A stretch of DNA of 64,000 bases, taken from a virus (Duplodnaviria; Caudoviricetes). Location: positions 44,623 through 108,622 of the IMG/VR virus record IMGVR_UViG_2934470325_000001; one strand, given 5' to 3'. A program made the position numbers and the translations under genes. Below the pieces are notes generated by a model. That model worked only from the letters and a program-made list of their open reading frames with translations, did not search any database and was not told the origin of the DNA. Positions 9,401-61,612 of the stretch are shown here, piece after piece. Position 1 is the stretch's first letter, and each line of letters begins with the position of its first letter.

Positions 9401-10725
9401 ATGTAGGCGTCGAGGGCCCGCGCCGTCCCGACGATCGCGCTGTTCTGGTTGTTGACGGCGCTGATGACGTTGCCGATGATCGACGCCAAATCCCCGGTGA
9501 TCGACAGCAGCGCGCTCGCCGACTCGGCACCCGCCGCGAAGAACTCAGCGAGGTCGCCGGTGGAGCGGGCACGAGCGATGCCGGCGGTCATCGAGTCGAT
9601 GGCACCCGCAAGCCGATCGCCGATGACCCGCACCAGCGGATCGGCGGCGACAGCAACCGACGACAGCGCCCGCGCCACCGGCTGGATCCGCACCACCAGT
9701 TGGTCGAAGATCCGATCGGCGGTGGCGGTGACCTGCTGGAATCCGCCGAGGATCATCGGGTCGGTGGCGGCGTCGGTGATCGCCGTCATCGCGAGCGACC
9801 AGTCGTGGGCGAGGATCTGCGCCTGACGGCTCACCGCCGGCAGCGTGTCGGTGGCGAGCCGGTCCAGGTTCCCTGCCGCCGACGCGTACGCCGCATCCTG
9901 GAGTGACTGCTGCAATCCGACCAGTTGCGGCTTGAGCCGGCCAACCTCCTGCACGAGGGCTTTCGCCGACGGGCTGAGCTGGGTAAACGGGTCGTCGACT
10001 TCGAACATGTCGTCGAGGGCGTCACTCAACCCGATGGAGGCCACCTTGACGGTGCCCATTGCGGCAGCGGCCCCACCGAGGATCCCCGGCAGGGTCCCGG
10101 CAGCAGCACCAGCAGCCACGGCAGCCGGGGCAATGTACTGGATTGCGCCACCCGCAGCCGCAGCGGCAGACGTTGTGATCGTCAGCACCGTGCCTGCGCG
10201 CTTACCCAGCTCACTGAGGGCGTTACCGGCTTTGTCGGCGTCGCGGGCTACCTTCTCGACCCCGCCGCCGAACGACACCGTGCCCAGCCGGCCAGCGGCA
10301 GCCTCGTGGGTGCGGGCGGCTTTAGCGAACTGCTCCGCCGACGCAACCCACCGGGCGGTGCCGGCCTCGTACCGCTTAGATGCCCGGTCGTGGCGGCCCG
10401 CCGACTGCTGCGCCGTCTTCGACGCAGCAGCCAGCTTGTCGGCTGCCTCGCCGGCCCGGCCCGCGTGCTGTTCCCACAGCGTCGTCGTCGACGCGAAACG
10501 CTGCGACGAACCTTCGTACATGGTTGCTGCGGCGTCGAACTTTTTGGCGGCGGCGGTGACCTTCCGGCCTGCCGCGTCGAGGTTCTTGCCGACCCCGGCC
10601 GCTTCCCGCTCTAGGCGGGCGAGCTGGTCGGCGAGCCGGTTGGTTGCCCTTGCTGCCTGCGCCGCACCTGAGGTGTAGTCGTGCACCTGCATGCGGAGAC
10701 GCACCGACACAGTCCGGTCGGCCAT
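6496..10725 (-). CDS. Tape measure protein
   Basis: 1409 aa, Ala-rich and helical, N-terminus MADRTVSVRL, hydrophobic central stretches, follows the tail chaperones. Confidence 0.95.
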   Translation of the reverse strand: MADRTVSVRLRMQVHDYTSGAAQAARATNRLADQLARLEREAAGVGKNLDAAGRKVTAAAKKFDAAATMYEGSSQRFASTTTLWEQHAGRAGEAADKLAAASKTAQQSAGRHDRASKRYEAGTARWVASAEQFAKAARTHEAAAGRLGTVSFGGGVEKVARDADKAGNALSELGKRAGTVLTITTSAAAAAGGAIQYIAPAAVAAGAAAGTLPGILGGAAAAMGTVKVASIGLSDALDDMFEVDDPFTQLSPSAKALVQEVGRLKPQLVGLQQSLQDAAYASAAGNLDRLATDTLPAVSRQAQILAHDWSLAMTAITDAATDPMILGGFQQVTATADRIFDQLVVRIQPVARALSSVAVAADPLVRVIGDRLAGAIDSMTAGIARARSTGDLAEFFAAGAESASALLSITGDLASIIGNVISAVNNQNSAIVGTARALDAYMASGQGAEDIAGIVDTLTTAYEGMAEVLGPLAGVARDALADPGTREGLATMFDILATGSAALRVVFDLFNALGDEFQSFVIAALALGAVAKKTSGAVATLGIAAQGAAVKVAAMGPAGTLAAKGMTGFASAANKAVTALIALQLAGAVLDQFVDPIADVDRLTKSVQEFAETGRATGELTRVFGDSLEGLNLSAETAGDKWFPNLGRSIESLLPPAKSLNELIYGDSFTGGKERIQALDSAVAQYAKTTNNTAGVNAAWNRILSASGLDAGELAKIMPQTVGQMERLNGAANSGAGSLAALEARAKTLGEGLQGAVTSGRDLIDVFNELNGAAIGSAEAEIKAEESIDRLSEALKENGRALNKQGTDFDIANEKGRENKQLTLDLIQAGAEAAQKKYEETGSVEQAAGVYDKYIEALRKTLHGAKLTDEQIDALIERYGMMPPAVTTPVTAPGATNAASQVGGVLYQIRQLPNGKVVLIGAKTAQAMADMRAAKAVLNSFRDRHFTITGQVRWTSSGNLKVPGGTQLKRWGGIDRPIPMAAGGTLEAGIYPASNPPLVKFAEPETGGEAYIPRKGDRNRSLSILAEAASWNNARVVPMAAGGVIAGGSMVAAASGLVAYGASASATSTDRGSPLESVEAYIQARDAIQRLNESLKENGRSFSLSTKKGRENYSAVISSVKAAEEAAQAKFRETGSVKAANKEYDAHIAKLRATLKQQKVSASTIDSLMKKLAARPTYDTPGPVGSEKNIAAAQAAISAEGSLASITDLFSLNKPIFDVKDETGRENLTALFRFLKDAQDAAQAVLEQTGDKKKATGVYDSYVAQLRTILSGSGMSKSQIDSLLKQYGKIVLTPNAVGGVYMGSPSGLLSLSEGGLFDSAKTLYGFAEPETGGELFLPRLGSRRRGEDLLSIGAGWYGGRFVRGGQGSGVSTQVTNNLTVNSQGGPPSLSEMSALQRQMDARARVGRKG

Positions 10726-11195: not shown

Positions 11196-11707
11196 ATGTC
11201 ATCATCCGCCCGGTTGAGGTTCCAGGCGGCCGTGGCCAGCTTGTCGAACTGGGCGTCGGAGATGCGGTCGTACAGCTTGGCCCACCGGTTGCCCGACAGT
11301 TCCGGCGACACGATCGACGCCCTCACCAGTTCCGGGAAGAACGTCGTCGAGTTGACGCCGAGTCCGTCTCGCGGGTCCCGCTTCCCGGTCTGACGGTCGG
11401 TGCGCGGCGAGTGGTCGGCGAACAGCTTCGTCCACTCCGGTCGGGGCAGCGCCCGCAGCGTGAACTCCACCGTGTGCCGGCGCATCTCTTCCGCGAGGCG
11501 GTCCAGTTCCGGCTGGTCCGGGTCCGGGGTGGGGCCCCGCGATGCGAGCCGGTCATCACCGGGAAGCCCGCCAGCCTCGGCCTGCGCGGAGCGCTCGTCG
11601 ATCGCAGTCTTGAGCCGCTCGTACTCGGCGCGCAGCCGTCCGTTGAGGCATAGCGGCACGGTGGTTTCGGCGAGGGTCGCCTGATCGAGGATGCTGTCGA
11701 AATCCAT
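11144..11707 (-). CDS. Tail assembly chaperone (gpG-like)
   Basis: Between the tail tube and tape measure genes; RBS GGGGAG upstream. Confidence 0.9.
   Translation of the reverse strand: MDFDSILDQATLAETTVPLCLNGRLRAEYERLKTAIDERSAQAEAGGLPGDDRLASRGPTPDPDQPELDRLAEEMRRHTVEFTLRALPRPEWTKLFADHSPRTDRQTGKRDPRDGLGVNSTTFFPELVRASIVSPELSGNRWAKLYDRISDAQFDKLATAAWNLNRADDDIPFSLTSSPDRRNSDGS
11189..11195 (-). other. Programmed -1 frameshift heptamer C-CCT-TTC
   Basis: X XXY YYZ pattern in the correct phase (ATC CCT TTC). The -1 frame reads LADQLAGSPELRRKL..KRLDGWEPRE into the next ORF. Confidence 0.85.
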
Positions 11708-11744
11708 GGTTGGTCGCTCCCCAGCGAATCAGTCGGGTGTGGGA

Positions 11745-11777
11745 GCGGGCCGCACCCGACAGTGGGATGCGGCCCGC
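11745..11777 (-). terminator. Hairpin between the tail tube and chaperone genes
   Basis: GCGGGCCGCA-CCC..GGG-A-TGCGGCCCGC inverted repeat. Confidence 0.6.
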
Positions 11778-11800
11778 GAAGAAGAAGGGGCGAGCAGGGG

Positions 11801-12307
11801 TTACGGGCCGGCGACGACCGCCACGTCACGCTGCACCGAGCCGATGATGAAAGGCTTCTGCGTGATCTTGTGAACCGAGTTGCGGGCCGGCGTGTTCTTC
11901 CGCTGGATGCCCATCTCCACCGGGTACACGTCCACCAGGTCCCCGACGGCGATCGCGTCCTCGAAGTCCACCGCCCAGCGCAACACGATGTTGCCCTGGG
12001 TGCCCGGCGCGAGGGCGATACGCGCCTCGTCGTCGTCCGGGGACGCCGGGTTGAAGACGTAGGTCAACTCCATCGTGTCGGTGAAGTCGCCGCGCGCCTC
12101 GAAGATCTGCTTGCTGCACAGGCGCGGGTCGTCGATCGTGTTCTCCGACGTCTCCGTGGTCAGGCCGTCGCCGGTCAGGTAGCAGGACAGGTCGAGGACC
12201 GTGCCCGCGTTCAACTCCGTGACCTTCGGCGCGGCGGTGTTGGCGATGGCCGGCACCCACAGCGCCGTCATCGTCCCATTTGTGTTGACTGCGATGGGCT
12301 GACTCAT
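11801..12307 (-). CDS. Major tail (tube) protein
   Basis: WVPAIANTAAPKVTELNAG..DLSCYLT..DPRLC motif of actinophage tail tubes. Confidence 0.9.
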   Translation of the reverse strand: MSQPIAVNTNGTMTALWVPAIANTAAPKVTELNAGTVLDLSCYLTGDGLTTETSENTIDDPRLCSKQIFEARGDFTDTMELTYVFNPASPDDDEARIALAPGTQGNIVLRWAVDFEDAIAVGDLVDVYPVEMGIQRKNTPARNSVHKITQKPFIIGSVQRDVAVVAGP

Positions 12308-23160: not shown

Positions 23161-24486
23161 TCACATCGCAACCGTGTTGAAGTCGATCCCGCTGTCGGTG
23201 CCGCGCGGACGCCACTGCAACGGGTCGACGGCGTTCGGCCGCCGCCACGTTCCCTCCGTCGTGTGGACCGCGTACCGCAGCGCGTCTAGCCCGTGGTCGT
23301 CAACCTTGATGGGGGCGTCCAAACCCTGCTGCGCCTTGGTCGCATCCCACGAATACGACGGGAACTCGTCCACCAGCGCTTTGCACGAACGGTGAACCTT
23401 CAACTTGCCCGCAGCCAGCAACGTCGACAACGTGCGGATCCCGTCAGCAACCGCGTTACTAGCCGGCGTAGGAGCCCACCCGTCACGCCAAAGCTGCTGC
23501 ATGAACGACGCCGCCGACGGATCCACCACCACCGCCTCGGGACGAACCCCCACCGGGCCAACTGCGTCACCGGGCGAGCGGTAGCCGCCGAGCCACTTCC
23601 CGAACTCCGCCGAATACTCGGCGTCGGTCAGCGAACGGCGGTGCAGCTTCGAGTCGTACCGGTACTCACTCGCCACGTACAGGGTCTGCGACGCATCCAT
23701 GCCGACCAGCAGCCCGTGGAACGGGTTGGTGGTGCCGTAGTCGATGCCGACGGCGATCCACTTCCAGATCGGCGGGACGATGTCGATGACATGCTTGTCG
23801 GCGTCCCACATGTCGTAGATCGCGCCCTCGGCCATGCACCACTCGCCGAGCACGAACCGGCGGTAGAACAGGCCGACGTACTCGGCTTTGATGGCAGCCA
23901 CATACTCGGGGTCAAGCGCCGGGTTGTCGTCGAGGGTGAAGTGGAAGTTCGCGATACCCAGCTCGGCGGCGCGGAGGATGAAGTTCTTCCGCAGCCAGTG
24001 GCCCGGCCCATCCGGGTTCGTGGTGATCAAACACTTGGCACCCGGCACGGACAGGCGAGCCAGAAGCTGGTTGAAGAACGCCTCCGGGACCAGCGTGCCC
24101 TCATCGAGCAACGCCAAGCATGCCGTCAACCCCCGAAGCCGACCCTCAGCGCGCGCATCCGAAGCACCAATCAGGTGCACCGTCCGCCCAAGGATCGACG
24201 CCGTAGGCGCACCCCTGGTGTGATGCACCAAGTCGGCGACCGGCCCGAACAACGCCGGATCCTGCAACGGCTCCAGAATGTTCCGCTCGATCGTCTGCAA
24301 CGTCCGCCCGCAGATCAGCACCAGCCCCGACGGCGGTGCCTGCGCCACCTGAATGAGGAACGCGACCAGAGACGCAATAGTCTTCCCCGACCGGACTGCC
24401 CCTGACCAGATCGTCACCCGAGCGTGGGATGAGCCAGCGATCGACAGCACCTGCTTGCGGGACAGCGGCAGCGCATCGAGGTTCAC
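23161..24486 (-). CDS. terL: Terminase large subunit (PBSX-like)
   Basis: Walker A GAVRSGKT, Walker B LLDE, TTNP coupling motif, nuclease IDYG and DDHGLDALRY. Confidence 0.97.
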   Translation of the reverse strand: MNLDALPLSRKQVLSIAGSSHARVTIWSGAVRSGKTIASLVAFLIQVAQAPPSGLVLICGRTLQTIERNILEPLQDPALFGPVADLVHHTRGAPTASILGRTVHLIGASDARAEGRLRGLTACLALLDEGTLVPEAFFNQLLARLSVPGAKCLITTNPDGPGHWLRKNFILRAAELGIANFHFTLDDNPALDPEYVAAIKAEYVGLFYRRFVLGEWCMAEGAIYDMWDADKHVIDIVPPIWKWIAVGIDYGTTNPFHGLLVGMDASQTLYVASEYRYDSKLHRRSLTDAEYSAEFGKWLGGYRSPGDAVGPVGVRPEAVVVDPSAASFMQQLWRDGWAPTPASNAVADGIRTLSTLLAAGKLKVHRSCKALVDEFPSYSWDATKAQQGLDAPIKVDDHGLDALRYAVHTTEGTWRRPNAVDPLQWRPRGTDSGIDFNTVAM

Positions 24487-38748: not shown

Positions 38749-38816
38749 GCCCGTAGCCATCGCCGAACCGCCGAGCCCGTCGCCCCCGCAGCGTCGGGCT
38801 TTCGTGCTGCCCGCCC

Positions 38817-38999
38817 TCACCGCACACCCCCGCGCCGCTTCACCACAGTCCGGTTGTGCCAATGCCCCGCACACAGGTACGGCTCCAACCGGTCGAAGTC
38901 GTGGCGCAGGTTGCCGACCTTCCCGGCAGCCAGGGCAGCGGCGATGCGGTCCCGGTAGCGGATCTTCCGGGGTGTCGGGCACACCCGAGGGGCGCTCAC
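38817..38999 (-). CDS. Small basic Cys/His protein
   Basis: CPTPRKIRY..PYLCAGHWH; GTGA-coupled. Confidence 0.65.
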   Translation of the reverse strand: MSAPRVCPTPRKIRYRDRIAAALAAGKVGNLRHDFDRLEPYLCAGHWHNRTVVKRRGGVR

Positions 39000-39640
39000 G
39001 CCGCCACCCGCTTCGACCGTCCCCGCGCTGTGCCGTTGCGGCGACGAACCGCCTGCATGATCCGGTGTCCCTCCGTGCGGCTGCCGGCCCGCTCGTTCAA
39101 CCACACCCGCGACGGGGTTTCACCCTCATGCCACAGGCGGAAAAATCGGCGGCGCACCTCTTTCATGCGGGAGGTGACCGTCCGGTAGGGGACACCAAGA
39201 AGGTTGGCGGCGGCTTGAGGGCTGCGCCCGGCGGCCATCGCAGCCACGGTCGCCTGCTGCCGTGCGGTGAGGGCGGCGAGGATCTGTCGGGTGGCGTGCC
39301 GTTCCACCACGGACGTTTCGGGGCTTGGTGTGGTGCGGGCCGCCCACTGCCAGTACATGACGTAGCGGGGTGTCTGCGAGTGCTGTCCGATGTTCCGGTC
39401 GGGAAGCCCGTGGGAGCGTCGGATGGCTGCTTCTTCGCGGAGGATGGCGCTGCGGCCGGCGGTGACAAGGTCGTGGCGGGCGGGCGGGTTGGTGGTCGTG
39501 TAGAGGTGTTCGGCGATGGCGGACCAGGCGGTGTCGTAGCGTTCGTGGAAGTCGGCGGCGCGGGCTCCGACGCCGAGGGCTGCGTCTCGGGCTGCCGTGT
39601 TGATGTCGGCGAGGGTCCAGCCGTGGCGGAGGGCGGTCAT
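38996..39640 (-). CDS. ECF sigma-factor-like protein
   Basis: SPETSVVER..LAALTARQQ..AAANLLGVPYRTVTSRMKEVRRRF (sigma4-like HTH). Confidence 0.7.
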   Translation of the reverse strand: MTALRHGWTLADINTAARDAALGVGARAADFHERYDTAWSAIAEHLYTTTNPPARHDLVTAGRSAILREEAAIRRSHGLPDRNIGQHSQTPRYVMYWQWAARTTPSPETSVVERHATRQILAALTARQQATVAAMAAGRSPQAAANLLGVPYRTVTSRMKEVRRRFFRLWHEGETPSRVWLNERAGSRTEGHRIMQAVRRRNGTARGRSKRVAA

Positions 39641-40755
39641 GCTGCGATCCCGTCGAACAGGTCGAGCTGCTGCGGGGCGGCGAGGCAGAGCGCGGCCGGC
39701 GAGGCGGCTGTGGGCCGGGTGTGGTCCCAGTCGTCACCGGTGAAACTGGCCCCGGGCAGGTCGGCGAGGTGCGGGTGGGTGCTGGCGTAGGTGGCGCGGT
39801 CGACCTTGCCGAGGAGCAGACTGTCGGCCACCCCGACGCGGGGGATCAGGTCGCGGGGAATCGTGTCCAACCGCAGCGGGCCGGTGGCGTAGCCGGCTTG
39901 GTGGGCGAGATGGGCGGCATAGACGGTGCAGCGGAGGCGTGCGACGGCGGCGGTGAGCGGGTCGATCTCGATGCCGTCCACGGACGCGACGACCCGGGGT
40001 AGGGCGTGCTGCGGGTCGATGCGGGTGCCGCCGGTCGCGGCCGGGCCCCCGACGGCTTGCCGGGGCCGGAGGGTGCCGGTGGTGTACCACTCCCACAGGT
40101 AGTCCATGGCGCGGATGAGCATGTGGCCGGTGCCGGCGGTGGGGTCGATGGTGCGGATCAACCGCTGGGTGCGGAACTCGGCGCAGGCGGGGATGAGGGT
40201 CCGGTCGAGCAGGAAGTCGCAGATCCACCACGGCGTCTGGGCGAGCGCGAACCCTTTGCGCCGCTCGTCGGTGATCGTCTGAAGGAGGTCGCCGATGAGC
40301 CAGCCGCTGATCGACGGCGGCTCGGCTGTCACCTCGTAGGCGAGGCTGGGTGCGTCGGCGGCCCACCAGTCGGCGAGTGCCTGCACCGCGTCATCTGACG
40401 GTGTGCCCTCGTGGAGGTCCGTGTTGTAGGCGGGGTGCATCAGCCACTGGGTGGCCGGGTGCACGGTGAGGTTGCCCATGGCCTGGGCGAGGGCGACGAC
40501 GGGCCGGGCGGTGCCGGTGGTGTAGCGGGCGGGCACATCGCGCAGGCCGGCGTGGAGGGTCACGTCGATCAGGTGGTGGTCTTCGGCCCAGGCGACGATC
40601 GCGGACAGGTACACCCAGGCGGCGGCGATGCGCTGCCGGCGCTGGTGCCCGTCGTGGGTTCGAGGGCCGGGAATGCTGTCGGCGAGCCGGTCGGTGTGGC
40701 GGTGCAGCGCCTTGACGAGGGGGTTGACGAAGGTGCGGTCGTCGACTGGGTTCAT
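39637..40755 (-). CDS. Truncated BREX-2 PglX-like methyltransferase homolog (SAM-binding half only)
   Basis: AAAWV..AEDHHLI, IGDLLQ..RKGFALAQTP..FLLDRTL, IDPTAGTGH, GIEIDPLTAAVARLR, VADSL; no NPPY; ends QLDLF. Confidence 0.8.
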   Translation of the reverse strand: MNPVDDRTFVNPLVKALHRHTDRLADSIPGPRTHDGHQRRQRIAAAWVYLSAIVAWAEDHHLIDVTLHAGLRDVPARYTTGTARPVVALAQAMGNLTVHPATQWLMHPAYNTDLHEGTPSDDAVQALADWWAADAPSLAYEVTAEPPSISGWLIGDLLQTITDERRKGFALAQTPWWICDFLLDRTLIPACAEFRTQRLIRTIDPTAGTGHMLIRAMDYLWEWYTTGTLRPRQAVGGPAATGGTRIDPQHALPRVVASVDGIEIDPLTAAVARLRCTVYAAHLAHQAGYATGPLRLDTIPRDLIPRVGVADSLLLGKVDRATYASTHPHLADLPGASFTGDDWDHTRPTAASPAALCLAAPQQLDLFDGIAA

Positions 40756-40782
40756 GGTGACCTCCGTCGGTGTAAGGGGTGG

Positions 40783-40816
40783 GGGTGCGGTCCGTCCACG
40801 ACGGCGGACCGCACCC
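40783..40816 (-). terminator. Hairpin upstream of the PglX-like gene
   Basis: GGGTGCGGTCCGTC-N6-GGCGGACCGCACCC. Confidence 0.6.
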
Positions 40817-40825
40817 GTGACAAAG

Positions 40826-41671
40826 TCAGGCTGCGAGGCTGTAGGTGGGTAGCGGCCGGTGTGCCAGCTCGTTGACGTAGCTGCCGGACATGCGTAGGGC
40901 GCGTTGGATGGCGGCGAGGGTCATGCCGGCCTGCTGGCCCCGGTGTACGGCGTGGTGCCGCTCCAGGCGCGTCAGGTTGGCTGGCTCGCCGCTGAGGGCT
41001 CGGCGGATGGCCTCCCAGTCGACGATCCGGGCATCGCCGGCCGGGTCCGCGTCGTAGGGGGTGCCGTCTGGGTCGTCGAGGGCGGCGTCGTCCCACGCGA
41101 GAGGCGGTGCCCACCCGTTGCGGCGGCCGGTGTTGCGGGCACGCACGTTGGTACCGGGGGTGAGGGACCACCGGTCGTACAGGTCGCAGACGGCACGATG
41201 CGTGTCGACGGTGACCATCTGCTGCTTCGCCCACGCCCACTCCCACACTGCCTGGAGTTGCTTGTCGAGTCCCCGGGCGACGGCGGTGAGGCTGTAGCCG
41301 GCGGCCACCAACGCGCGGATGCGGCGGGTGACGCCGACTGCGTGGACCATGCCGGCGGGCAGGGTGGCGGCAGGCTGCACGGCGAGAACGAGAGCAGCAG
41401 TGGTGGCGCGGATGGTCTTGCGGCGTTCGTGAACGACCGAGTAGAGGGTGCGGGGAGCAACCCCGGCGGCTCTCGCGACAGACGCGAGGGACATGCCGCT
41501 GTCGCGGAGCTGTTCGACGTGGGTGAGCACGTTCCCGACGGGTACCGGGTGCTGCCATTTGCCTTCGGCGATGAGGCGGCGTCGCCGCCGGTCGTAGTGG
41601 GAGTCGACGCGTTGGCAGCCTCGGCAGCCGGCGGTGTAGGTGCGGTGCTGTCCGCAGTTGAAGCCGGCCAT
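40826..41671 (-). CDS. Multi-HTH DNA-binding protein
   Basis: GCRGCQ N-terminus, several HTH units, RRIRALVAAGY and GWAPPLAWDD motifs common in actinophages. Confidence 0.8.
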   Translation of the reverse strand: MAGFNCGQHRTYTAGCRGCQRVDSHYDRRRRRLIAEGKWQHPVPVGNVLTHVEQLRDSGMSLASVARAAGVAPRTLYSVVHERRKTIRATTAALVLAVQPAATLPAGMVHAVGVTRRIRALVAAGYSLTAVARGLDKQLQAVWEWAWAKQQMVTVDTHRAVCDLYDRWSLTPGTNVRARNTGRRNGWAPPLAWDDAALDDPDGTPYDADPAGDARIVDWEAIRRALSGEPANLTRLERHHAVHRGQQAGMTLAAIQRALRMSGSYVNELAHRPLPTYSLAA

Positions 41672-42810
41672 CAGCGGGAGACCCGGATCGGCATGATGAG
41701 GTACCGGTAGCCGGGGACGGGCTGCCCGTCGTCTCCGGCGGGGGTGATGACGGCCGGCTTGAACGCGTTCGTGGACGCGAAGTGGGCGTCACGGCTGCCG
41801 AGCTGCTGGAGTCCTTCGGTGAGGTACTGCGGGTTGAAGCCGATGGTGAGCGGGTCACCGGTGAACGTGGCCTCCATGGCCTCGGAGGCGCGGGCGTCTT
41901 CGGTGCCGCCAGCTTCCACGATGAGGCTGTCCGGGCTGAACGACAGCAGCACGGGGGTGGCGCGGTCGGCGACGAGGGCCACCCGCTTCACGACCTCAAC
42001 CAGTGCGGCGACGGGGACGACTGCGGTGGCGGCGACCGCCTCCGGCTTCGGGAACAGCGACCGGACGGGCGGGTAGTTGGCCCCGTCGAGCAGCCGGGAG
42101 GTGGTGCGGCGGCCGTCCCGGGCGAAGCCGATCATCCCTTCGCCGGCGTTCTCCTGCGCCAACGCGATCGTGACCTCACCGCCAAGCGGGCCGAGGGCCT
42201 TCGCCGTGTCATGGAGGGTGCGCGCGGGGACGAGGGCGTTGATGTTCACGTCGGGGTTGTCCGGCGTCCACCGCATCTCCCGCACGGCCAGCCGGTACCG
42301 GTCGGTGGCGAGCAGCGCCATCGTGTTGCCGGCGAGTTCGACGCGGACGCCGGTCATCATCGGCAGCGTCTCGTCCCGGCCGGCGGCCACGGCGACCTGG
42401 GCGACGGCGGTAGCGAACGCGGCGGCGTCCACCGTCCCCGCCGGTGCCGGCATCGCCGGTAGCGCCGGGTAGTCCTCCACCGGCATCGTCGGCAGGGTGA
42501 ACCGGGCCGAGCCGCACACCAACTCCAGGTGCGCGCCGACGCTGGCGAGGCTTACCGGCTTGTGCGGTAGCGCCTTGGTGATCTCGGCGAGCAGCCGGCC
42601 CGACACGAGCACGCCGCCGGGGTCGGTGACGGTGCCGCGAACGTGCACCTCGGTCGACACCTCGTAGTCGAACGAGCTGACAGTCACCCCGTTGTCGTCG
42701 GCGATCAGTCGTACCCCGGCGAGGACGGGCACGGACGGGCGGTTCGGTAGGGCCTTCGCGGCGTCGTGAACGGCGTCGGCGAACGCGCCGCGCTCAACGG
42801 TCAGCTTCAC
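41671..42810 (-). CDS. dnaN: DNA polymerase III beta sliding clamp (phage-borne)
   Basis: RPSVPVLAGV, FDYEVS, ATDRYRL, GFNPQYL, YLIMPIR; full length. Confidence 0.97.
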   Translation of the reverse strand: MKLTVERGAFADAVHDAAKALPNRPSVPVLAGVRLIADDNGVTVSSFDYEVSTEVHVRGTVTDPGGVLVSGRLLAEITKALPHKPVSLASVGAHLELVCGSARFTLPTMPVEDYPALPAMPAPAGTVDAAAFATAVAQVAVAAGRDETLPMMTGVRVELAGNTMALLATDRYRLAVREMRWTPDNPDVNINALVPARTLHDTAKALGPLGGEVTIALAQENAGEGMIGFARDGRRTTSRLLDGANYPPVRSLFPKPEAVAATAVVPVAALVEVVKRVALVADRATPVLLSFSPDSLIVEAGGTEDARASEAMEATFTGDPLTIGFNPQYLTEGLQQLGSRDAHFASTNAFKPAVITPAGDDGQPVPGYRYLIMPIRVSR

Positions 42811-43427
42811 GGGGCGACTCCTTCGCTAGTGGTGGTCGGGGTGGTGGGCCAGGTGCGCCAGCCGATGTGGCTGCGGGATGCGACAGGGCCTCGCGGCTGC
42901 TGCTGGTAGTGGGACGCCAACCCATCCGACCCGTACGGGCGACTGGAGGCGCTGGTGAGCTGGAACAGGCAAAGCTGACCGATGCGCATGCCCGGGTGCA
43001 GCAGGATCGGCCGGGGAGCGTGGTTGACCAGCTCCAACGTGATGTGCCCGGAGAAGCCGGGATCGATGAAACCGGCCGTGATGTGTGTTGCCAGCCCGAG
43101 ACGGCCCATGCTGCTGCGGCCTTCCACGCGGGCGGCGAGGGTGGCGTCGAGGGTGATGTGCTCGACGGTGGAAGCCAGCACCATCTGGCCAGGCGCGATG
43201 AGCGCTCCCCTGTCGCTGATCTCGACGGGCATCATCGGGTTCTCGGCGGCCGGGTCGATGTAGTCGTCGACATACCAGATGTCGGGGTGACGCTCTGGCC
43301 ACATCAGCAGGTGCTGGTCGAGTCGCACGTCAATGGATGACGGCTGGATCAGGGACGGCTCGTGTGGGGTGATGCGGAGCCGGCCGGAGTCGATGGCGCT
43401 GGCAATGTCGGTGTCGGAGAGCAGCAT
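42807..43427 (-). CDS. dcd: dCTP deaminase
   Basis: MLLSDTDI, QPSSIDVRL, EGRSSMGRLGL..HITAGFIDPGFSGHITLEL. Confidence 0.95.
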   Translation of the reverse strand: MLLSDTDIASAIDSGRLRITPHEPSLIQPSSIDVRLDQHLLMWPERHPDIWYVDDYIDPAAENPMMPVEISDRGALIAPGQMVLASTVEHITLDATLAARVEGRSSMGRLGLATHITAGFIDPGFSGHITLELVNHAPRPILLHPGMRIGQLCLFQLTSASSRPYGSDGLASHYQQQPRGPVASRSHIGWRTWPTTPTTTSEGVAP

Positions 43428-43561
43428 CACGACTCCTCCGATCTGGTGGGGGTGGGCGTCTCGCTGGAGTCGCAGACGGGGCAGGTCTGCCCGTGGGCGG
43501 CGTGCCGGCGGCGGGCACTGTCGGTGCCGCACGGCAGGACGGCGTTGGGGTGCAGGCTCAC
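43427..43561 (-). CDS. 44-aa Cys/His peptide (not in the ORF track)
   Basis: VSLHPNAVLPCGTDSARRRHAAHGQTCPVC..; overlaps both neighbours (GTGA/TGATG). Confidence 0.6.
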   Translation of the reverse strand: MSLHPNAVLPCGTDSARRRHAAHGQTCPVCDSSETPTPTRSEES

Positions 43562-44094
43562 GCGGCCACCGCCCCAACCGGTCGAAGGCTCTCCACCCCG
43601 AGCCACAACCAGCCGCCCAACGGCCGGCAGTACCGCTGCACCGACCCGAACAACGGCACATGCGGGCTGCGCTCAAACTCACCCAGCGCGTTCTCCGTCG
43701 TGCCCAGCAGCCGGGCGAGGCTGGCCTGTGTGTGTCCGCACGCCCGGCGTGCCGTCACCAGACCGGACATGAGGTGCTGCTGGTCCCAGACGGACGCCGC
43801 CGTGAACTCGGCGGGACGGAAGGCGAGCATCGCCGGGTCGTCGTACGGTCCGCCGGGTACACCGTCAGGGAACATGACGATGCGTAGCCCGAGGTGGTGG
43901 GCAATGCGTCGGGCCGGGTTGATGCGCTGAAACTCGCCCAGCTCGTAGCGAGCTACAGCGGTTTGGGTGCATCCGAGGATCGCGGCGAGTGACGCTTGGC
44001 TGTGCCCTGCCTCCTTTCGGGCTGTGATGAGGAGTGCCCGTAGGGCGAGGCGTGCTTCCCGGTCGTCGGGGTGCAGGTCGGTGGGGGCGCGCAT
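43558..44094 (-). CDS. Tandem XRE-HTH regulator
   Basis: Two copies of ARxxxGHxQASLAxxLGxTxxA. Confidence 0.85.
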   Translation of the reverse strand: MRAPTDLHPDDREARLALRALLITARKEAGHSQASLAAILGCTQTAVARYELGEFQRINPARRIAHHLGLRIVMFPDGVPGGPYDDPAMLAFRPAEFTAASVWDQQHLMSGLVTARRACGHTQASLARLLGTTENALGEFERSPHVPLFGSVQRYCRPLGGWLWLGVESLRPVGAVAA

Positions 44095-44414
44095 CAGGCG
44101 GCCTCGGCGTGGAACAGGGCGGCCGGGTGGGCGCGGTCGGGGCGCGGGGTGACCGCCTGCCACCGCCGGGCGGTCATGGTGGCGTGTACGTGGCTGCCGG
44201 CGAGGTCAACCATGCCGAGGTCGTCGGCGGCGTACACGAGGTCGTCGAGGCTGGCCCCGGTCATGGTGTCGATGTAGCCGTGGCGGGTGGTGTGGTGGAC
44301 TCGGCCGGTGTCGGCGAGGTTGAGCAGGTGGTGCAGGTCGGTGTCGTTCATGGCGGTCCTGTCGGGGTGGGGGCCCGCCCCGGTGGTGGGGCGGGCCGTC
44401 GTACGGGAGGTCAT
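44094..44414 (-). CDS. Hypothetical protein
   Basis: Coupled at both ends. Confidence 0.6.
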   Translation of the reverse strand: MTSRTTARPTTGAGPHPDRTAMNDTDLHHLLNLADTGRVHHTTRHGYIDTMTGASLDDLVYAADDLGMVDLAGSHVHATMTARRWQAVTPRPDRAHPAALFHAEAA

Positions 44415-45001
44415 GCGGCGTCGGCCCGCAGCACGCGGAGCCCGCCACGGCGCTTGACGGCGCGGCGCTCGTCCTCGGACATGCCACCCCAAACGCCGTC
44501 GTCAACCCCACCGCTAAGCGCCCACTGCAAGCACTGGTCAACGACAGGGCAGCGGCGGCAGACGGCCTTGGCCTGCTCGATCTGAGTGAGAGCCGGGCCG
44601 GACGTGCCGACGGCAAAGAACAACTCCGGGTCCTCGTCGCGGCAGATGCCACGGCTGTGGAAGTCGTCTTCGGCGGCGGGCCGGCGGATGCTCACGACGA
44701 CGCGGGGCTGTCCGGTCGGGTTGGCGGCAGGGGCCGTCGGGGCGGGCCGCACCGTCTCCGTGTTGCCGAGCGTGCCGCTGCCGCCCGGAGGGAGCCCCAG
44801 CATGTCCAGCACCTCAGCCCATGCGTGTGCGGCGGCGTGCTCGGCGTTGGGGTCGCCGTCGCGTGCCCCGAACTTGTCGGCGGCGATACCGGAGAGGACG
44901 TTGCGGGCGGCTTCCTGCTTGCGCTTCTGGTCGGCGGCGTCGGTGCCGGTGCCGCTGAGGCGGGTGGTGGCGAGCCCGCCGTCGATGCCGAGCGCGGCCA
45001 T
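44411..45001 (-). CDS. whiB: WhiB-family (WhiB1-like) Fe-S regulator with N-terminal extension
   Basis: CRDEDPELFF..AKAVCRRCPVVDQC..GVWGGMSEDERR. Confidence 0.93.
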   Translation of the reverse strand: MAALGIDGGLATTRLSGTGTDAADQKRKQEAARNVLSGIAADKFGARDGDPNAEHAAAHAWAEVLDMLGLPPGGSGTLGNTETVRPAPTAPAANPTGQPRVVVSIRRPAAEDDFHSRGICRDEDPELFFAVGTSGPALTQIEQAKAVCRRCPVVDQCLQWALSGGVDDGVWGGMSEDERRAVKRRGGLRVLRADAA

Positions 45002-45381
45002 CAGGCGTCCCGGCCGTTGGCGAGGTGGAGCAGGTGATCGGCGTGGCACGGCTGGCCGTCCGGGCACCAGCACGCGAGGTCCCGACCCGCAAGGTCACGG
45101 CGCAACTCGGCGAGGGTGTCGGCGTCGTACTCGTAGTTGCCCATCGGGCCGGTGTGCAGAATGAACAGTTCGACGGCGCGGCGGCGACCCCACGTCGGGT
45201 CGGTGGACTGGCCGATGAACCGGTCGCCTTCCCACACCTCCGACTTGGTGGCGGTAGCGACGGCGGTGAACGGGTTACCCCAGCGGGTGGGCCGTCCGAC
45301 GTACTTTGCGTTCTCGGGCATCCGCCATCCGACGGAACGCTTGCGCTGGATGCGCTTCGGCAGGGTGGTCGCGGCGGTCAC
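45001..45381 (-). CDS. DUF4326 protein
   Basis: YVGRPTRWGNPF..LAGRDLACWCP..CHAD. Confidence 0.9.
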   Translation of the reverse strand: MTAATTLPKRIQRKRSVGWRMPENAKYVGRPTRWGNPFTAVATATKSEVWEGDRFIGQSTDPTWGRRRAVELFILHTGPMGNYEYDADTLAELRRDLAGRDLACWCPDGQPCHADHLLHLANGRDA

Positions 45382-52098: not shown

Positions 52099-53133
52099 TC
52101 AGGCGGCGGCGGGGGCCGGCTCGGCGGCGGACTGCTTGGCGGCCTTCCGCGCGCGGGCGGCGACGGTCTCGGGCAGCACGAACGTGTGCGACGACACGGC
52201 AGCCGGCCCCTCTTCGATCAGCCACTTCGTGAGGCCGAGCGCGTACAGGAATCCCCGCCGGTAGGTGCGTTCGGTGGTTACCGCCAAGCGGGGCGTGACC
52301 CCGTCGGGGCGAAGCTGGATGAGCATTCCGCCGTCGGTCGGCAGCATGGGGTGGTCAACGTCGTCGCCCTTGATCCGGATGACGGGGGCGTGCCGGTAGC
52401 CGGTCAACTGCAATGCCTGCTCCGGGTAGAACTTCGGCCCCTCACCCTCGCGGGTTTTGAAGTCGACCAGCAGATCCACGGTGAGCCCGAGTTTCACGGC
52501 GCGCTTGGCCTGAATCTGCGTCACCCGCGACACCAGCTTCGCGGCGGCCGGGGTGGCGTCGGCGCGGAACCGGATCACCCCATCGGTCGTCCCTGCATAC
52601 CCGGCACCCTTGTTGATGACGAGAGCTTCGGATGCGAGGAACGAGTCGGGGGTCAGCCCGTACTCGGCGACGAACGCCTCGAACGCCTTCACGTAGGGGG
52701 CGATGTCGGCGTCGTAGGGCTTGATCTGGCCGTGGTACGACCACCATTCGATGACGTCATGGGTGCGGGTGCCTTCGTCGGCGCGGCGAGCGGAGTGCTC
52801 GATGTGCCGTTCGGACAGCCACCGGGCGATGCACGCTTTGCATTCGTGGCAGGCGCAGTTGTCGCAGCGGGTGGTGTTGTCGTGGTCGCAGCGGCGGCCG
52901 GTGTTCCCGCACGGCTTGGTGCGGGAGGCGATGACGATGGAGGGGAGTTCGGCGAACACGGCGGCTACGGCCTGGTTCGCGGCGTACCGGAGGAGAGCGT
53001 CTTTGGCGATGACTCCGGTGACGGTGGTGCAGGACAGCAGTCGGGCGTCGCCGATGAGGTAGTAGCGCCGGTCGTCGACTTCTTCGACGCCGTGGAAGGT
53101 CGGCGAGATGCGCCGATCGACGGTGATGGTCAT
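52099..53133 (-). CDS. PD-(D/E)XK (Cas4/RecB-like) exonuclease with Cys insert
   Basis: GTRTH, YAGTTD, VDFKT and QLTGY motifs. Confidence 0.85.
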   Translation of the reverse strand: MTITVDRRISPTFHGVEEVDDRRYYLIGDARLLSCTTVTGVIAKDALLRYAANQAVAAVFAELPSIVIASRTKPCGNTGRRCDHDNTTRCDNCACHECKACIARWLSERHIEHSARRADEGTRTHDVIEWWSYHGQIKPYDADIAPYVKAFEAFVAEYGLTPDSFLASEALVINKGAGYAGTTDGVIRFRADATPAAAKLVSRVTQIQAKRAVKLGLTVDLLVDFKTREGEGPKFYPEQALQLTGYRHAPVIRIKGDDVDHPMLPTDGGMLIQLRPDGVTPRLAVTTERTYRRGFLYALGLTKWLIEEGPAAVSSHTFVLPETVAARARKAAKQSAAEPAPAAA

Positions 53134-53438
53134 CAGATCCACGCCCATTCGCGGGCCGTCTTCATCGACACCACTTCCGCCGTCGGCGGCGAATCAGGCC
53201 GGTGCTCGTGCTTCTCGCGGCACCACGGGTCGCAGCCGTCGGCGGGGCGGCGGAACAGCCACGCCCGGCCGTCAGCCGACAGGTTGAGATAGCCCCTGGT
53301 CTGCCGGTGCTTGTACTTCTCGATGACGGTGCCGTCGTCGGCGGTGGTGCGGTGCATCCACATCCAGTCGCTTCGCTCGTCGGCGGGGATGACTGCTTCG
53401 AGGGGTGCCCAGTTCGGGTTGTCGATGTCAGTCATCAC
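53133..53438 (-). CDS. Hypothetical protein
   Basis: WMWM..YKHRQTRGYLNL motif; coupled. Confidence 0.7.
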   Translation of the reverse strand: MMTDIDNPNWAPLEAVIPADERSDWMWMHRTTADDGTVIEKYKHRQTRGYLNLSADGRAWLFRRPADGCDPWCREKHEHRPDSPPTAEVVSMKTAREWAWI

Positions 53439-60387: not shown

Positions 60388-60603
60388 TCAGGGGGAGGGC
60401 AAGGTGGGGTCGGCGGCTGCATGTCCTACCGACCCCACCGCCTCCCAATGCCGCCGCGAGGCGGACGACTTGGCGTGCTCGGCGAGCAGGGCGTCGGCGT
60501 GCTCACGGGTCGGCGCAAACACCGGGAAGCCGTCGGCGACCAGGCGGACCGCGTATCCGCCCGACAGCAGCCGAGACACCGAGGGCAGCGTCGGGACGGT
60601 CAC
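60388..60603 (-). CDS. Hypothetical protein
   Basis: GTGA-coupled to the antirepressor. Confidence 0.55.
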   Translation of the reverse strand: MTVPTLPSVSRLLSGGYAVRLVADGFPVFAPTREHADALLAEHAKSSASRRHWEAVGSVGHAAADPTLPSP

Positions 60604-61412
60604 CGAGAAACCTCGACAGCCTTGACCGGGTCCAGCGAGCCGTGATCGGCGATCCTCGCCACCGCCCGATCCCACGCAAACCCCTCACCAGCCGGCGTCA
60701 ACCGGGGCGACGACGCGACCTGCACGCCGTGGCTGTTCGTCTCGAACTCGGTTTCCTTCACCCGCACGTAGTCGCGTTCCACCGCCCATGCGGTCGGCTG
60801 GTTGTGGCGGAGCGTGTTGCCTCGGATGAGAAGCCGAACGTCGGCGAGAAAGTCCCACACCTGCCGGTGCAGGATCCGCGCGCCGTGTTCGCGGGCCGCC
60901 CACGCCTTGACCTTGTTGGCGAAGTCGGCGACGGAGATGAGCCCGTCGGCGGCGCGGTGGAAGTCGGCTTGCTGGGCGCGGGGTTCGAGAGCGGCAATGG
61001 CGGCCTGCTGCTGTTCGAGGGCGCGAGCCTGGTCGGCGGCCAGTTGGAGTGCGTCAGCGAACGACTTCGGGACGGCGAGTGCCATCTCGTAGCGGCCGGT
61101 CTTCCGGATGGCCGGGATGACTTCCTCGGCCAGCCAGTCCTGGAAGGCTTCCGCCGACGGCAGGGTGCTACGCATCGTGAGCCGGTATACGCCCGGCTCG
61201 TTGACGACCGAAAGTTCCTGCTGCCCGCCAGGGGTGTTGATGGGGGCAACACCCTTCATCCGGGCGGGAAGCTTCGACACAGCGTTACGAGCGCCGCCGC
61301 CGTAGCCGAGCGCGGAGCAGACGTCGCGGGCGACGAACCACGGCTCGTCGTCGATGAGGAGGGTCCGGATGGGGGTGGTGTCGTACTCGAACACCTTGGC
61401 GAGGGCGGTCAC
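60600..61412 (-). CDS. Antirepressor (Bro-N plus KilA-C/ANT)
   Basis: PWFVARDVCSALG..NEPGVYRL..FQDWLAEEVIPAIRKTGRY..PKSFADALQLAA..LTPAG. Confidence 0.93.
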   Translation of the reverse strand: MTALAKVFEYDTTPIRTLLIDDEPWFVARDVCSALGYGGGARNAVSKLPARMKGVAPINTPGGQQELSVVNEPGVYRLTMRSTLPSAEAFQDWLAEEVIPAIRKTGRYEMALAVPKSFADALQLAADQARALEQQQAAIAALEPRAQQADFHRAADGLISVADFANKVKAWAAREHGARILHRQVWDFLADVRLLIRGNTLRHNQPTAWAVERDYVRVKETEFETNSHGVQVASSPRLTPAGEGFAWDRAVARIADHGSLDPVKAVEVSR

Positions 61413-61612
61413 GCGGCTCGCCCCAACGGCGCAGCGTGGACTTGCCGAGCCGCGCGGATGGCCTGTTCGAGTTCGTCCACGGTCGGGCCGGTGGGGGTCC
61501 ACGCGAGTTCGGCGGCCTGGCGGGGCGGGAGGGCGTCGCGCATGGCGAGGCCGTTGGCGATGATCGCCCCGGCGGCGCTGATGGCGTCCAGGCGGCGCTC
61601 GGCGGCGCTCAT
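61409..61612 (-). CDS. Hypothetical protein
   Basis: Coupled between Cro and the antirepressor. Confidence 0.65.
   Translation of the reverse strand: MSAAERRLDAISAAGAIIANGLAMRDALPPRQAAELAWTPTGPTVDELEQAIRAARQVHAAPLGRAA

Follow-up and report, generated by a model that had tools for sequence, protein, structure and literature searches.

The best-described relative of the protein reported here is PglX of BREX-2 and the Streptomyces Pgl system (NF033451, PDLC02529; S. coelicolor SCO6627), a protein of ~1200 aa that is encoded with pglW, pglY and pglZ and carries an NPPY motif, motifs V–VIII, a target-recognition domain and a C-terminal region. In S. coelicolor PglX, the NPPY occupies residues 378–381, its tyrosine is reported to be needed for Pgl function, and PglX and PglZ show a genetic toxin/antitoxin interaction (PMC4365076). 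A 2026 comparative study places 1039 of 1309 BREX-2 taxa in actinomycetes and gives the function of the PglX N-terminal domain as unknown, suggesting an interface to other BREX components (PMC12839542). Solved structures are available for type 1 relatives of PglX (8C45, 8Q56 and 9EWZ).

Phage-expressed inhibitors of BREX have been reported, among them T7 Ocr, a DNA mimic that binds PglX, and the T3 SAM lyase; ICP1 OrbA is reportedly a further phage anti-BREX protein. Terminal clamp-binding motifs have been described on the phage proteins T4 gp33/gp55, which work with gp45, and Mu C, which works with the host clamp. Catalytically dead methyltransferase paralogues, such as DNMT3L and METTL14, act as partners.

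The 372-aa phage protein described here, half-PglX, differs from PglX in that the NPPY, motifs V–VIII, the target-recognition domain and the C-terminal region are found in PglX only, whereas half-PglX ends in a clamp-type tail and is encoded in a phage replication module, with no pglZ in the record. The role proposed for it is that of Ocr, the SAM lyase and OrbA, but none of these is related to it in fold or sequence, its structural matches being methyltransferases. It shares the terminal clamp-binding motif of T4 gp33/gp55 and Mu C and is associated with a sigma-like factor, but its fold is unrelated to theirs. Like DNMT3L and METTL14, it retains the methyltransferase fold without catalysis, although they keep the complete fold and half-PglX only half of it. 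The literature searched, outside which lay the supplementary tables of PMC12839542 and the EVADES preprint, describes no truncated phage PglX and no clamp-tailed methyltransferase relative, and among the anti-BREX modes described in the papers found there is none that uses a shortened version of a subunit of the defence itself.

We conclude with high confidence that half-PglX is a non-catalytic PglX relative with a predicted-disordered tail tipped by a consensus clamp motif, that it belongs to a conserved mobile-element family of actinomycetes, and that it is made from a phage replication module together with a sigma-like protein.

Location and organization of the gene

The window (the whole 64-kb stretch that was analysed) is part of a 108.6-kb IMG/VR record. 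The gene had been read as phage-encoded, and this was borne out: the record is a provirus with a CheckV completeness of 93%, and among the phage genes of the window are those for the tape measure, terminase, portal, protease and major head protein, which share the strand of the half-PglX gene. The prophage host is a Micromonospora-like actinomycete. No tRNA genes were detected within the window. The gene sits in a replication module with dnaN, dnaB, a dnaC-like gene and a replication initiator. The statement in the initial annotation that no other pgl/brx genes are present held across the 108.6-kb record for the two models covered, PglZ and PglX: PglZ (PF08665) gave no match, and PDLC02529 matched the half-PglX gene only. 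The features of the locus are as follows.

38996–39640, (−) strand: downstream coupled gene for a 214-aa, two-domain, ECF-type sigma-factor-like protein (ATGA overlap, weak profile and Foldseek matches)
39637–40755, (−) strand: half-PglX gene, complete ORF including the stop codon, 372 aa (PADLOC, NF033451, AlphaFold2)
40761–40765, (−) strand: ribosome-binding site GGAGG, 5 nt ahead of the ATG at 40753–40755
40783–40816, (−) strand: GC-rich hairpin, stem of 12 bp, in the 70-nt gap that precedes the half-PglX gene (folding of 40756–40830)
41671–42810, (−) strand: phage beta sliding clamp gene dnaN, two genes upstream of half-PglX (three DNA_pol3_beta domains, E 1.7e-40 to 1.4e-25)

The 372-aa ORF proved intact, as first described, with an ATG start and a frame open throughout, and both the ribosome-binding site and the ATGA coupling were located; the stop TGA (39637–39639) overlaps the ATG of the ORF at 38996–39640. 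Its GC content by codon position (GC3 0.93, GC2 0.53) has the values of a real gene in this genome. The region 40756–40830 folds at −36.1 kcal/mol (z −3.4), with none of 200 shuffles folding as well. The hairpin within it has no trailing T-run, was not called a terminator by the pattern scan, and is a possible terminator or regulatory element. Promoter and terminator pattern scans of 38800–42000 found nothing.

Relationship to PglX

The PADLOC PglX model PDLC02529 matched half-PglX at E 1.7e-31 (residues 38–320 on profile positions 59–326 of 1189), and NCBIfam NF033451 (BREX-2 PglX) did so at E 8.2e-30 (residues 38–320 on positions 54–322 of 1185), with a score of 103.3 bits against a curated cut-off of 400, which is below the threshold for PglX membership. 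No Pfam family was matched, even at E ≤ 1. Searching 1.84 billion representatives with a profile of the short family yielded 1465 matches at E ≤ 0.001: a few short-family rows, followed by proteins of ~1150–1320 aa matched at their residues ~57–325 with E ~1e-32. A word search for longer relatives, which is a weak test, scored none, and the profile search did recover such proteins. Identity between the half-PglX family and PglX is only ~30%, and the family lies on a long branch.

Half-PglX spans the front third of PglX, retaining the N-terminal helical domain and SAM-binding motifs X and I–III. The PglX blocks named in the initial annotation were recovered in order and are conserved, both in the family alignment and in the comparison with full-length PglX. 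They comprise A44/W47 and E58-D59..L62 in the N-terminal domain; G155-D156-L157..Q159 and A170..Q173-T174-P175 before motif I; and D204-P205..G208-T209-G210-H211, G261..D265-P266..R273..R275 and D311-S312-L313 from motif I on. There is no [ND]PP[YFW] motif in the ORF, which stops ~60 residues past motif III, and the target-recognition domain, the C-terminal region and motifs IV–VIII are missing; motif search and model coverage both upheld the earlier view that the protein halts before NPPY and has no target-recognition domain. Judged by its sequence, half-PglX cannot on its own be a DNA methyltransferase, because motif IV and the target-recognition domain are missing.

An AlphaFold2 model (pLDDT 87.5, pTM 0.87) divides the protein into the following parts.

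40306–40755, (−) strand: N-terminal helical bundle, residues 1–150, equivalent to the PglX/BrxX and HsdM N-terminal domains
39751–40305, (−) strand: SAM-binding half of a gamma-class N6-adenine methyltransferase fold, residues 151–335 (model strands, conserved columns)
40123–40146, (−) strand: motif I, D204-P-T-A-G-T-G-H211 (D204, G208, T209 and G210 invariant in 45 sequences)
39640–39750, (−) strand: tail with predicted disorder and a linker that varies among relatives, residues 336–372 (pLDDT < 50 at 350–366 and 369–372)
39655–39669, (−) strand: Q363-L-D-L-F367, consensus beta-clamp-binding motif, five residues from the C-terminus (read from the DNA)

Residues 151–335 hold motif X (QTPWW), motif I (DPTAGTGH), the motif II region (DGIEIDP) and motif III (ADSLL). 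Motifs X and I are matched in sequence by CamA, LlaGI and PglX, and the D, P, G, G and H of motif I are common to 53 full-length PglX representatives. The model has three beta-strands only (202–204, 259–263 and 306–309), as against the complete seven-stranded fold of active gamma-class enzymes, and this half-sheet probably has an open edge. Structural comparison agreed with the proposed PglX homology: the best matches were PglX/BrxX, MmeI-type enzymes and type I M subunits, in their N-terminal part only, with model residues 3–337 covering only residues 1–494 of BrxX.

A conserved family in actinomycetes

At E ≤ 0.001, half-PglX has 208 relatives in actinomycetes, the 120 listed being 303–439 aa long; among the matches listed, all records are actinomycete except one metagenome bin labelled Gemmatimonadales. 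Twenty-nine columns are invariant across 45 short-family sequences, and the nine closest pairs (80–91% identical) have dN/dS values of 0.22–0.33. By these measures, the family is conserved and under purifying selection: the homologues show no random truncation or decay and form a conserved clade of the same length.

A tree was built from residues 38–320 of 23 of the 45 short-family sequences (every second), 18 of the 53 full-length sequences (every third) and 9 intermediate or compact forms. The short family forms one clade apart from full-length PglX (support 100/99); the tree is rooted at its midpoint, and the root does not fix the order of events. Strong conservation was found at 109 family positions, 48 of them common to the 53 full-length PglX proteins (in the N-terminal domain these include A44, W47, E58-D59 and L62) and 61 the family's own; the family therefore has constraints of its own.

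Family members occupy the replication or early regions of several unrelated phages as well as a second, non-phage-like context, and a nested subgroup has a different tail ('LPGAAFPLxDFxWP') and a different gene context. A tblastn search of 50,697 phage records with the half-PglX protein gave no match, and megablast of 20 kb of the window gave only a 163-bp match, to a mycobacterial prophage methyltransferase region.

Clamp-tailed relatives can be arranged in a graded series that runs from a full catalytic core to proteins without NPPY. It includes compact forms of ~440–480 aa with NPPY and a complete catalytic core (L021, L056, L073 and L075) and forms of ~394 aa that retain NPPY and ~45 further residues (L019, L071 and L072). 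The compact PglX-like adenine methyltransferases of actinomycete mobile elements (~436–480 aa) comprise the four just listed and the Streptomyces group L023-L059. Their N-terminal domain and the order of their motifs are those of half-PglX; some have clamp-type tails (QPTLFDL, QLNLFDL, QLALF and QPPLFDL), and some lie beside the same sigma-like gene. They differ from it in keeping NPPY and the whole catalytic core and in forming a separate clade (support 100/100), and may have enzymatic activity. The literature found gives them no name.

The C-terminal half was sought by tblastn around the family loci, and 27 of 31 had no match at E ≤ 1e-3 within 10 kb in any frame. Since L004/L064 and L013/L065 are the same elements in two collections, the independent count is 25 of 29. 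In the four loci with matches (L019, L020, L071 and L072), the extra residues lie inside the gene itself. A split enzyme with an adjacent partner was also considered and rejected: when the 108.6-kb record was searched by tblastn with the C-terminal halves of eight relatives that bear NPPY, no convincing match emerged, the best (E 0.013) being a 17-residue stretch antisense to another gene. A frameshifted pseudogene was ruled out by the missing C-terminal half and the conserved position of the stop.

The C-terminal tail and a possible block of Pgl/BREX-2

Clamp-binding motifs are described as being of the Q-aliphatic-x-[L/M]-[F/L] type in disordered terminal or loop regions, with QLDLF as the strongest consensus pentapeptide (PMC11139829). 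Half-PglX has such a sequence, Q363-L-D-L-F367, in its predicted-disordered tail, a feature absent from the initial annotation. The linker before it varies in length and sequence among relatives, and in 35 motif-bearing relatives Q363, L364 and L366 do not vary and F367 hardly does. Among the 120 relatives listed of the 208, QL[DSNG]LF occurs within the last 30 aa in 37 and elsewhere in none, and a looser clamp-type tail is present in 55. In contrast, other ORFs of the same loci contain the strict motif in 0 of 1197 cases and the loose one in 2 of 1197, and no full-length PglX representative (0 of 53) has a clamp-type tail. The QLDLF tail looks like a putative sliding-clamp anchor, and the phage DnaN, ~75% identical to the chromosomal DnaN of Micromonospora, is a candidate docking partner.

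Our preferred reading, held tentatively, is that clamp-tethered half-PglX blocks Pgl/BREX-2 on replicating phage DNA by competing with host PglX. The QLDLF tail would hold the protein on clamps, formed by phage or host DnaN, that are loaded on replicating phage DNA. Its PglX-like N-terminal domain would compete with host PglX for Pgl/BREX-2 partner proteins, for example PglZ, and Pgl/BREX-2 would then fail to assemble or act at the phage replication fork. Clamp binding, SAM binding, contact with Pgl proteins and an effect on defence are all steps that we infer.

A decoy role against Pgl is plausible on several grounds. Homology is confined to the first third of PglX, and the part retained is the N-terminal domain for which an interface role has been suggested. 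The genetic interaction of PglX with PglZ described above means that a PglX-like surface has a plausible target. The family is a separate, conserved clade shaped by purifying selection; its tails are enriched in the clamp motif, which follows a predicted-disordered linker, and a phage dnaN lies two genes upstream. The family, like BREX-2, is concentrated in actinomycetes and is spread over several unrelated phages and a second context; such spread over unrelated elements is usual for anti-defence genes.

Other observations weigh against it. Among 151 host-family genomes, full or fragmentary PglX was found in 4 of 9 carriers of the short form and in 27 of 142 non-carriers, a weak co-occurrence that is not significant (odds ratio 3.4, Fisher p 0.086), and 2 of the first 5 carrier genomes examined had no full-length PglX. 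The low identity to PglX, the long branch and the 61 of 109 conserved positions that are the family's own also count against a decoy, and the shared positions are mostly cofactor motifs or possibly core residues, leaving a shared partner surface conjectural. A clamp-type tail is present in fewer than half of the relatives listed, and clamp binding is read from the motif itself. The plain decoy model explains neither the QLDLF tail nor the near invariance of the SAM-binding motifs, nor why a sigma-like neighbour recurs. In its broadest form, the proposal is that a defence methyltransferase was turned by the phage into a clamp-riding pseudo-enzyme that blocks Pgl/BREX-2 at the fork, and that the defence itself works on replicating DNA loaded with clamps, or is licensed by it; we regard this as possible but doubtful.

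Alternative functions

The 214-aa protein encoded by the overlapping gene has sigma-type matches. In Pfam these were weak (Sigma70_r4_2 and HTH_23), of region-4 type only and below the cut-offs; SigM and SigK regions matched at E 0.003, and Atlas leads were also sigma-like. Nearly all of the 50 Foldseek matches listed are sigma factors, the best being M. tuberculosis sigma L at E 3.1e-3, and none of those listed has E ≤ 0.001. The model (pLDDT 70.9, pTM 0.42, alignment of 11 rows) shows two folded domains and a low-confidence linker at residues 83–112. Of 31 related loci, 7 have a homologue immediately beside the half-PglX gene, before or after it, and homologues also adjoin the separate-clade compact NPPY-bearing relatives L056 and L027/L074. 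The sigma-like protein is a possible functional partner of half-PglX.

With such a partner, half-PglX could couple replication to transcription, the clamp-bound protein and the sigma-like factor activating middle or late promoters only on replicating DNA. The ATGA overlap, the sigma-type structural and weak region-4 matches and the recurrent adjacency, which extends to two compact relatives, point in this direction, and there are precedents for clamp-linked transcription in Mu C, which uses a QHDLF motif with the host clamp, and in T4 gp45/gp33/gp55 (bioRxiv 10.1101/2025.01.04.631326). We nevertheless consider this function unlikely, given that only about one locus in four has the two genes side by side and that the sigma assignment is weak by the Foldseek, pTM and alignment values above; a methyltransferase-derived, SAM-motif-bearing domain serving as co-activator would also be left unexplained. 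In a bolder variant of the preferred anti-Pgl reading, the same clamp-bound protein would also deliver the sigma-like factor to RNA polymerase and thereby couple late transcription to replication.

The near invariance of motifs X, I, II and III, despite impossible catalysis, would be accounted for if the half-fold docked on a host or phage adenine methyltransferase, possibly PglX, and recruited or activated it at the fork so that nascent phage DNA was marked as 'self', a hijack rather than a blockade. The probable open edge of the three-stranded half-sheet would suit such docking, and so would the graded series of clamp-tailed relatives with and without NPPY. We judge this decidedly unlikely: neither the record nor the surroundings of most family loci hold a C-terminal half, and Pgl methylation in S. 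coelicolor is thought to mark phage for restriction, not protection (PMC4365076).

The tail might instead act by itself, filling the cleft of the host clamp and halting or redirecting host replication and repair, with the PglX-like body as a scaffold. QLDLF is of the consensus, highest-affinity type, overexpression of a QLDLF peptide is reported to inhibit E. coli growth (PMC11139829), and the gene lies in a replication module beside dnaN, dnaB, the dnaC-like gene and the replication initiator. The 330 residues of the body are under purifying selection and their cofactor motifs are invariant, which far exceeds what this would need, and the body is kept in close relatives without the motif; we consider such a role very improbable.

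The conserved cofactor-binding motifs, together with the requirement of BREX defence for SAM (bioRxiv 10.1101/2023.02.27.530186), could suggest that half-PglX sequesters S-adenosylmethionine, leaving less of it for defences that depend on SAM, a possibility raised in the initial annotation. Titration by a stoichiometric binder is unlikely, as draining a metabolite pool would presumably take the protein in very large amounts; phages are known to solve this with an enzyme, SAM lyase, and the clamp tail would have no role, so that we give this explanation hardly any weight. A decaying, functionless remnant of a phage methyltransferase gene, suggested by NPPY-bearing relatives in the same clade, within which the catalytic part may have been lost, can be practically dismissed in view of the same-length relatives across several actinomycete genera, the low dN/dS, the invariant columns, the intact frame, the ribosome-binding site and the translational coupling.

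Biological significance

How BREX and Pgl stop phage replication is an outstanding question, and the role of the PglX N-terminal domain is described as open (PMC12839542). A natural protein that combines this domain with the cofactor half and a candidate replisome anchor is a ready-made probe, which could reveal the Pgl partner of the N-terminal domain and whether the replication fork is where the defence operates. If half-PglX does inhibit BREX-2, it would be, as far as the literature was searched, the first anti-defence protein to have arisen from one of that system's subunits. It could also aid work with Pgl+ actinomycetes, such as bringing phages or plasmids into strains that produce antibiotics. 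Should its role instead be to connect the clamp with a phage sigma factor, the replication-coupled late transcription of T4 and Mu would be extended to actinophages. Under either reading, half-PglX is a clear example of a half-Rossmann pseudo-enzyme that selection has maintained.

The half-PglX gene within the phage replication module

The half-PglX protein, a 372-aa product homologous to the N-terminal third of BREX-2 PglX, is encoded in a provirus record of 108.6 kb with an estimated completeness of 93%. Its gene lies on the same strand as the tape-measure, terminase, portal, protease and major-head genes of the window, and the minus-strand order (dCTP deaminase, dnaN, an HTH protein of PHROG 1590, half-PglX, a 214-aa HTH protein, a replication-initiator O-like gene, dnaC-like and dnaB) places it within the phage replication module. 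The relevant features are as follows.

39637-40755, minus strand: half-PglX gene, 372 codons open from ATG
38996-39640, minus strand: sigma-like gene (214 aa), directly downstream of the half-PglX gene and translationally coupled to it
40783-40816, minus strand: GC-rich hairpin with a perfect 12-bp stem, in the 70 nt separating the half-PglX gene from the HTH gene
41671-42810, minus strand: phage dnaN, two genes upstream of the half-PglX gene
44411-45073, minus strand: WhiB-like ORF, early-region gene
52099-53148, minus strand: exonuclease (PHROG 298), early-region gene
60600-61502, minus strand: Ant-type anti-repressor (PHROG 130, E 1.4e-53), early-region gene

The codon-position GC of the half-PglX gene (GC3 0.93, GC2 0.53) is as in real genes of this high-GC genome, GGAGG lies 5 nt ahead of the start codon, and the stop codon shares ATGA with the start of the next ORF. 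The hairpin upstream (-36 kcal/mol for a 75-nt stretch, z -3.4) is not followed by a T-run and could be an actinomycete-type factor-independent terminator or a regulatory element. The WhiB-like ORF clusters with short-family neighbours in five other loci, or four elements once the duplicate pair L004/L064 is counted once. Outside the window, towards the beginning of the provirus record (near position 24436, plus strand), an ORF of at least 280 codons carries the motif ...LILNPPYQRGAVWD..., a motif typical of DUF262/GmrSD-type N-terminal domains and not of a methyltransferase.

A conserved PglX homolog lacking the catalytic part

Residues 38-320 of the half-PglX protein matched the PADLOC PglX model PDLC02529 (profile positions 59-326 of 1189, E 1.7e-31) and the NCBIfam BREX-2 PglX equivalog NF033451 (positions 54-322 of 1185, E 8.2e-30), the latter scoring 103 bits where the cut-off is 400; a Pfam search returned no match. 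A profile built from 45 short-family members and run against 1.84 billion representatives recovered 1465 proteins (E ≤ 0.001), headed by a few members of the short family; the list is otherwise mostly proteins of ~1150-1320 aa, aligned at their residues ~57-325 with E ~1e-32. DrdV and MmeI were also among the matches of the half-PglX protein. Motifs X (QTPWW), I (DPTAGTGH), the II region (DGIEIDP) and III (ADSLL) are retained, with almost no variation across the short family. The NPPY-type motif is absent, and only ~60 residues follow motif III. In S. coelicolor PglX, NPPY occupies residues 378-381, and its tyrosine is needed for Pgl function (PMC4365076, in part). The initial annotation, which had described an intact 372-aa ORF with a ribosome-binding site and ATGA coupling, carrying N-terminal PglX blocks and stopping before NPPY, was correct on every point checked.

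It had also proposed a search for same-length homologs and an estimate of dN/dS, and both point to a selected family and not a fragment. Word-based searching yielded 208 relatives (E ≤ 0.001), of which the 120 listed span 303-439 aa and 47-100% identity; the named sources are Micromonospora, Streptosporangium, Glycomyces, Phytohabitans, Spongiactinospora and Dactylosporangium. An alignment of 45 relatives contains 29 invariant columns, and dN/dS (NG86) was 0.22-0.33 in the nine closest pairs, which share 80-91% identity and have unsaturated dS values of 0.16-0.46. The half-PglX protein is real, conserved and non-catalytic.

A midpoint-rooted maximum-likelihood tree of residues 38-320 was built from 50 rows (23 of 45 short-family, 18 of 53 full-length and 9 intermediate or compact sequences). 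It resolved full-length PglX, compact enzymes of 436-480 aa and the short family, each with 100/99 or 100/100 support; on this sequence comparison, the short family is an old, separate clade. Since that clade includes L019 and L072, two loci whose products keep NPPY and ~45 more residues ahead of the tail, the forms make a graded series: compact proteins with the whole catalytic core, proteins of ~394 aa ending after motifs IV and V, and the half-PglX protein ending before motif IV. At L019, sigma-like paralogs (9231-9971 and 11441-12178) flank the NPPY-bearing gene on both sides.

The C-terminal half is not encoded elsewhere in the 108.6-kb record. At 27 of the 31 family loci (25 of 29 once elements fetched twice are counted singly) it is also absent, in any frame, within 10 kb. 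This argues against both a split enzyme and a frameshift.

A C-terminal clamp-type motif

The half-PglX protein ends in ...APQQLDLFDGIAA, and its predicted model has a pLDDT below 50 over about the last 23 residues. QLDLF is the consensus beta-clamp-binding pentapeptide in its strongest-binding form, and many such motifs lie in disordered C-terminal tails (2024 review, PMC11139829, in part). Among the 120 relatives listed, QL[D/S/N/G]LF occurs within the last 30 residues in 37 and a looser form in 55, usually 3-6 residues from the end and after linkers very unlike in length and sequence; the strict motif was never found outside the last 30 residues. The last 30 residues of 1197 other ORFs from the same 78 DNA stretches held no strict and two loose motifs, and 53 full-length PglX representatives contained neither the strict motif anywhere nor the loose one in their last 30 residues. 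In the other clade, several compact relatives with NPPY likewise end in clamp-type motifs, so the tail marks the mobile-element forms and not the defense enzyme. The tail sequence is probably a clamp anchor.

The phage DnaN shares ~75% identity with chromosomal DnaN of Micromonospora and 82-85% with a few further Micromonospora copies. The dnaN stop runs into the start of the following gene, and the dCTP deaminase ORF (42807-43682) overlaps dnaN likewise. The clamp gene looks as if it was acquired from a host fairly recently; given the resemblance of its product to the host protein, the tail could fit either clamp and could dock on the phage or the host one. Clamp blockade by the half-PglX protein is a rival explanation of its role.

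Ahead of the linker lies a second conserved element, LPGA(S/A)F..D(W/F)xW (residues ~332-348, window ~39712-39762; also noted in relatives P0020-P0116). In a nested subgroup without the clamp motif, 'LPGAAFPLxDFxWP' is the sole tail motif, and a third subgroup has 'IxNLG' instead. These may be alternative short docking motifs.

Genomic neighborhoods and the sigma-like gene

Loci were collected from species genomes (61) and viral contigs (16). The short family is surrounded by actinophage early and replication genes (WhiB-like, RusA, YqaJ exonuclease, dnaB, dnaC-like, dnaN and HTH proteins) in varying arrangements. Its most recurrent direct neighbor is a homolog of the sigma-like gene, which adjoins it on one side or the other in 7 of 31 loci, the window not counted. 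Such homologs also adjoin two compact relatives of the other clade, giving at least nine other loci altogether, in either order.

The sigma-like protein gave weak matches to sigma region 4, and language-model and structure leads pointed to sigma-like clusters. Its model shows two folded domains joined by a low-confidence linker, and sigma factors filled nearly every row of a 50-row Foldseek table (best E 3.1e-3). These predictions suggest that it is probably an ECF-type phage sigma factor. A role of the half-PglX protein in replication-coupled transcription is a further rival, as is that of a methyltransferase partner.

In the subgroup without the clamp motif (L001, L003, L006, L007, L008, L014 and L016), a DUF4192 protein, two unknown proteins, a prepilin-peptidase-like and a cell-wall-hydrolase-like protein are encoded ~2-9 kb downstream, and four of the five neighbors tested had no PHROG match. 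This subgroup may reside in another kind of mobile element, perhaps conjugative or otherwise non-phage. Loci L023-L059 (Streptomyces, Kitasatospora) encode a 436-aa compact PglX-like methyltransferase with NPPY and without a target-recognition domain or clamp tail. It lies in a strongly conserved block with DUF4007, an ADP-ribosylglycohydrolase-phosphatase fusion, a GNAT acetyltransferase and a weak SAD/SRA-like protein, which looks like an undescribed conserved island.

Relation to Pgl/BREX-2

The N-terminal domain of BrxX/PglX, of unknown function, is a proposed interface to other BREX components (PMC12839542, in part). Its retention in the half-PglX protein counts for an anti-Pgl reading. 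Full-length PglX shares 48 of the 109 strongly conserved family positions, several of them in this domain, which likewise speaks for it; the other 61 are the short family's own and, with its standing as an old, separate clade, count against that reading. Also in its favor, BREX-2 and the short family are both concentrated in actinomycetes (1039 of 1309 taxa for BREX-2; PMC12839542, in part), and PglZ keeps PglX in check in S. coelicolor (PMC4365076, in part). The host co-occurrence counts weigh against it: among 151 host-family genomes, 31 carry full or fragmentary PglX and 9 the short form. PglX was present in 4 of the 9 short-form carriers versus 27 of the 142 others (odds ratio 3.4, p 0.086); of the first five carrier genomes searched, three had PglX and two had none.

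The initial annotation had proposed an anti-BREX decoy. Its conserved, non-catalytic PglX homolog stands, and its interpretation is supported in part. A simple decoy needs no conserved cofactor motifs, clamp tail or sigma-like neighbor. On these points for and against, we kept the anti-defense reading in modified form: the half-PglX protein would act as a fork-tethered competitor against Pgl/BREX-2. Judged from sequence, this is tentatively the single most likely function, at clearly less than even weight.

Full-text searches covering the main papers turned up no account of a phage PglX in truncated form or of a clamp-tailed relative. The known anti-BREX proteins in that literature were Ocr and SAM lyase, and one title also names an archaeal virus virion protein. 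In kind, the half-PglX protein is akin to known things, namely a defense-derived pseudo-enzyme and a clamp-binding accessory protein. It is of good interest because it gives experiments a direct way into the mechanism of Pgl/BREX-2.
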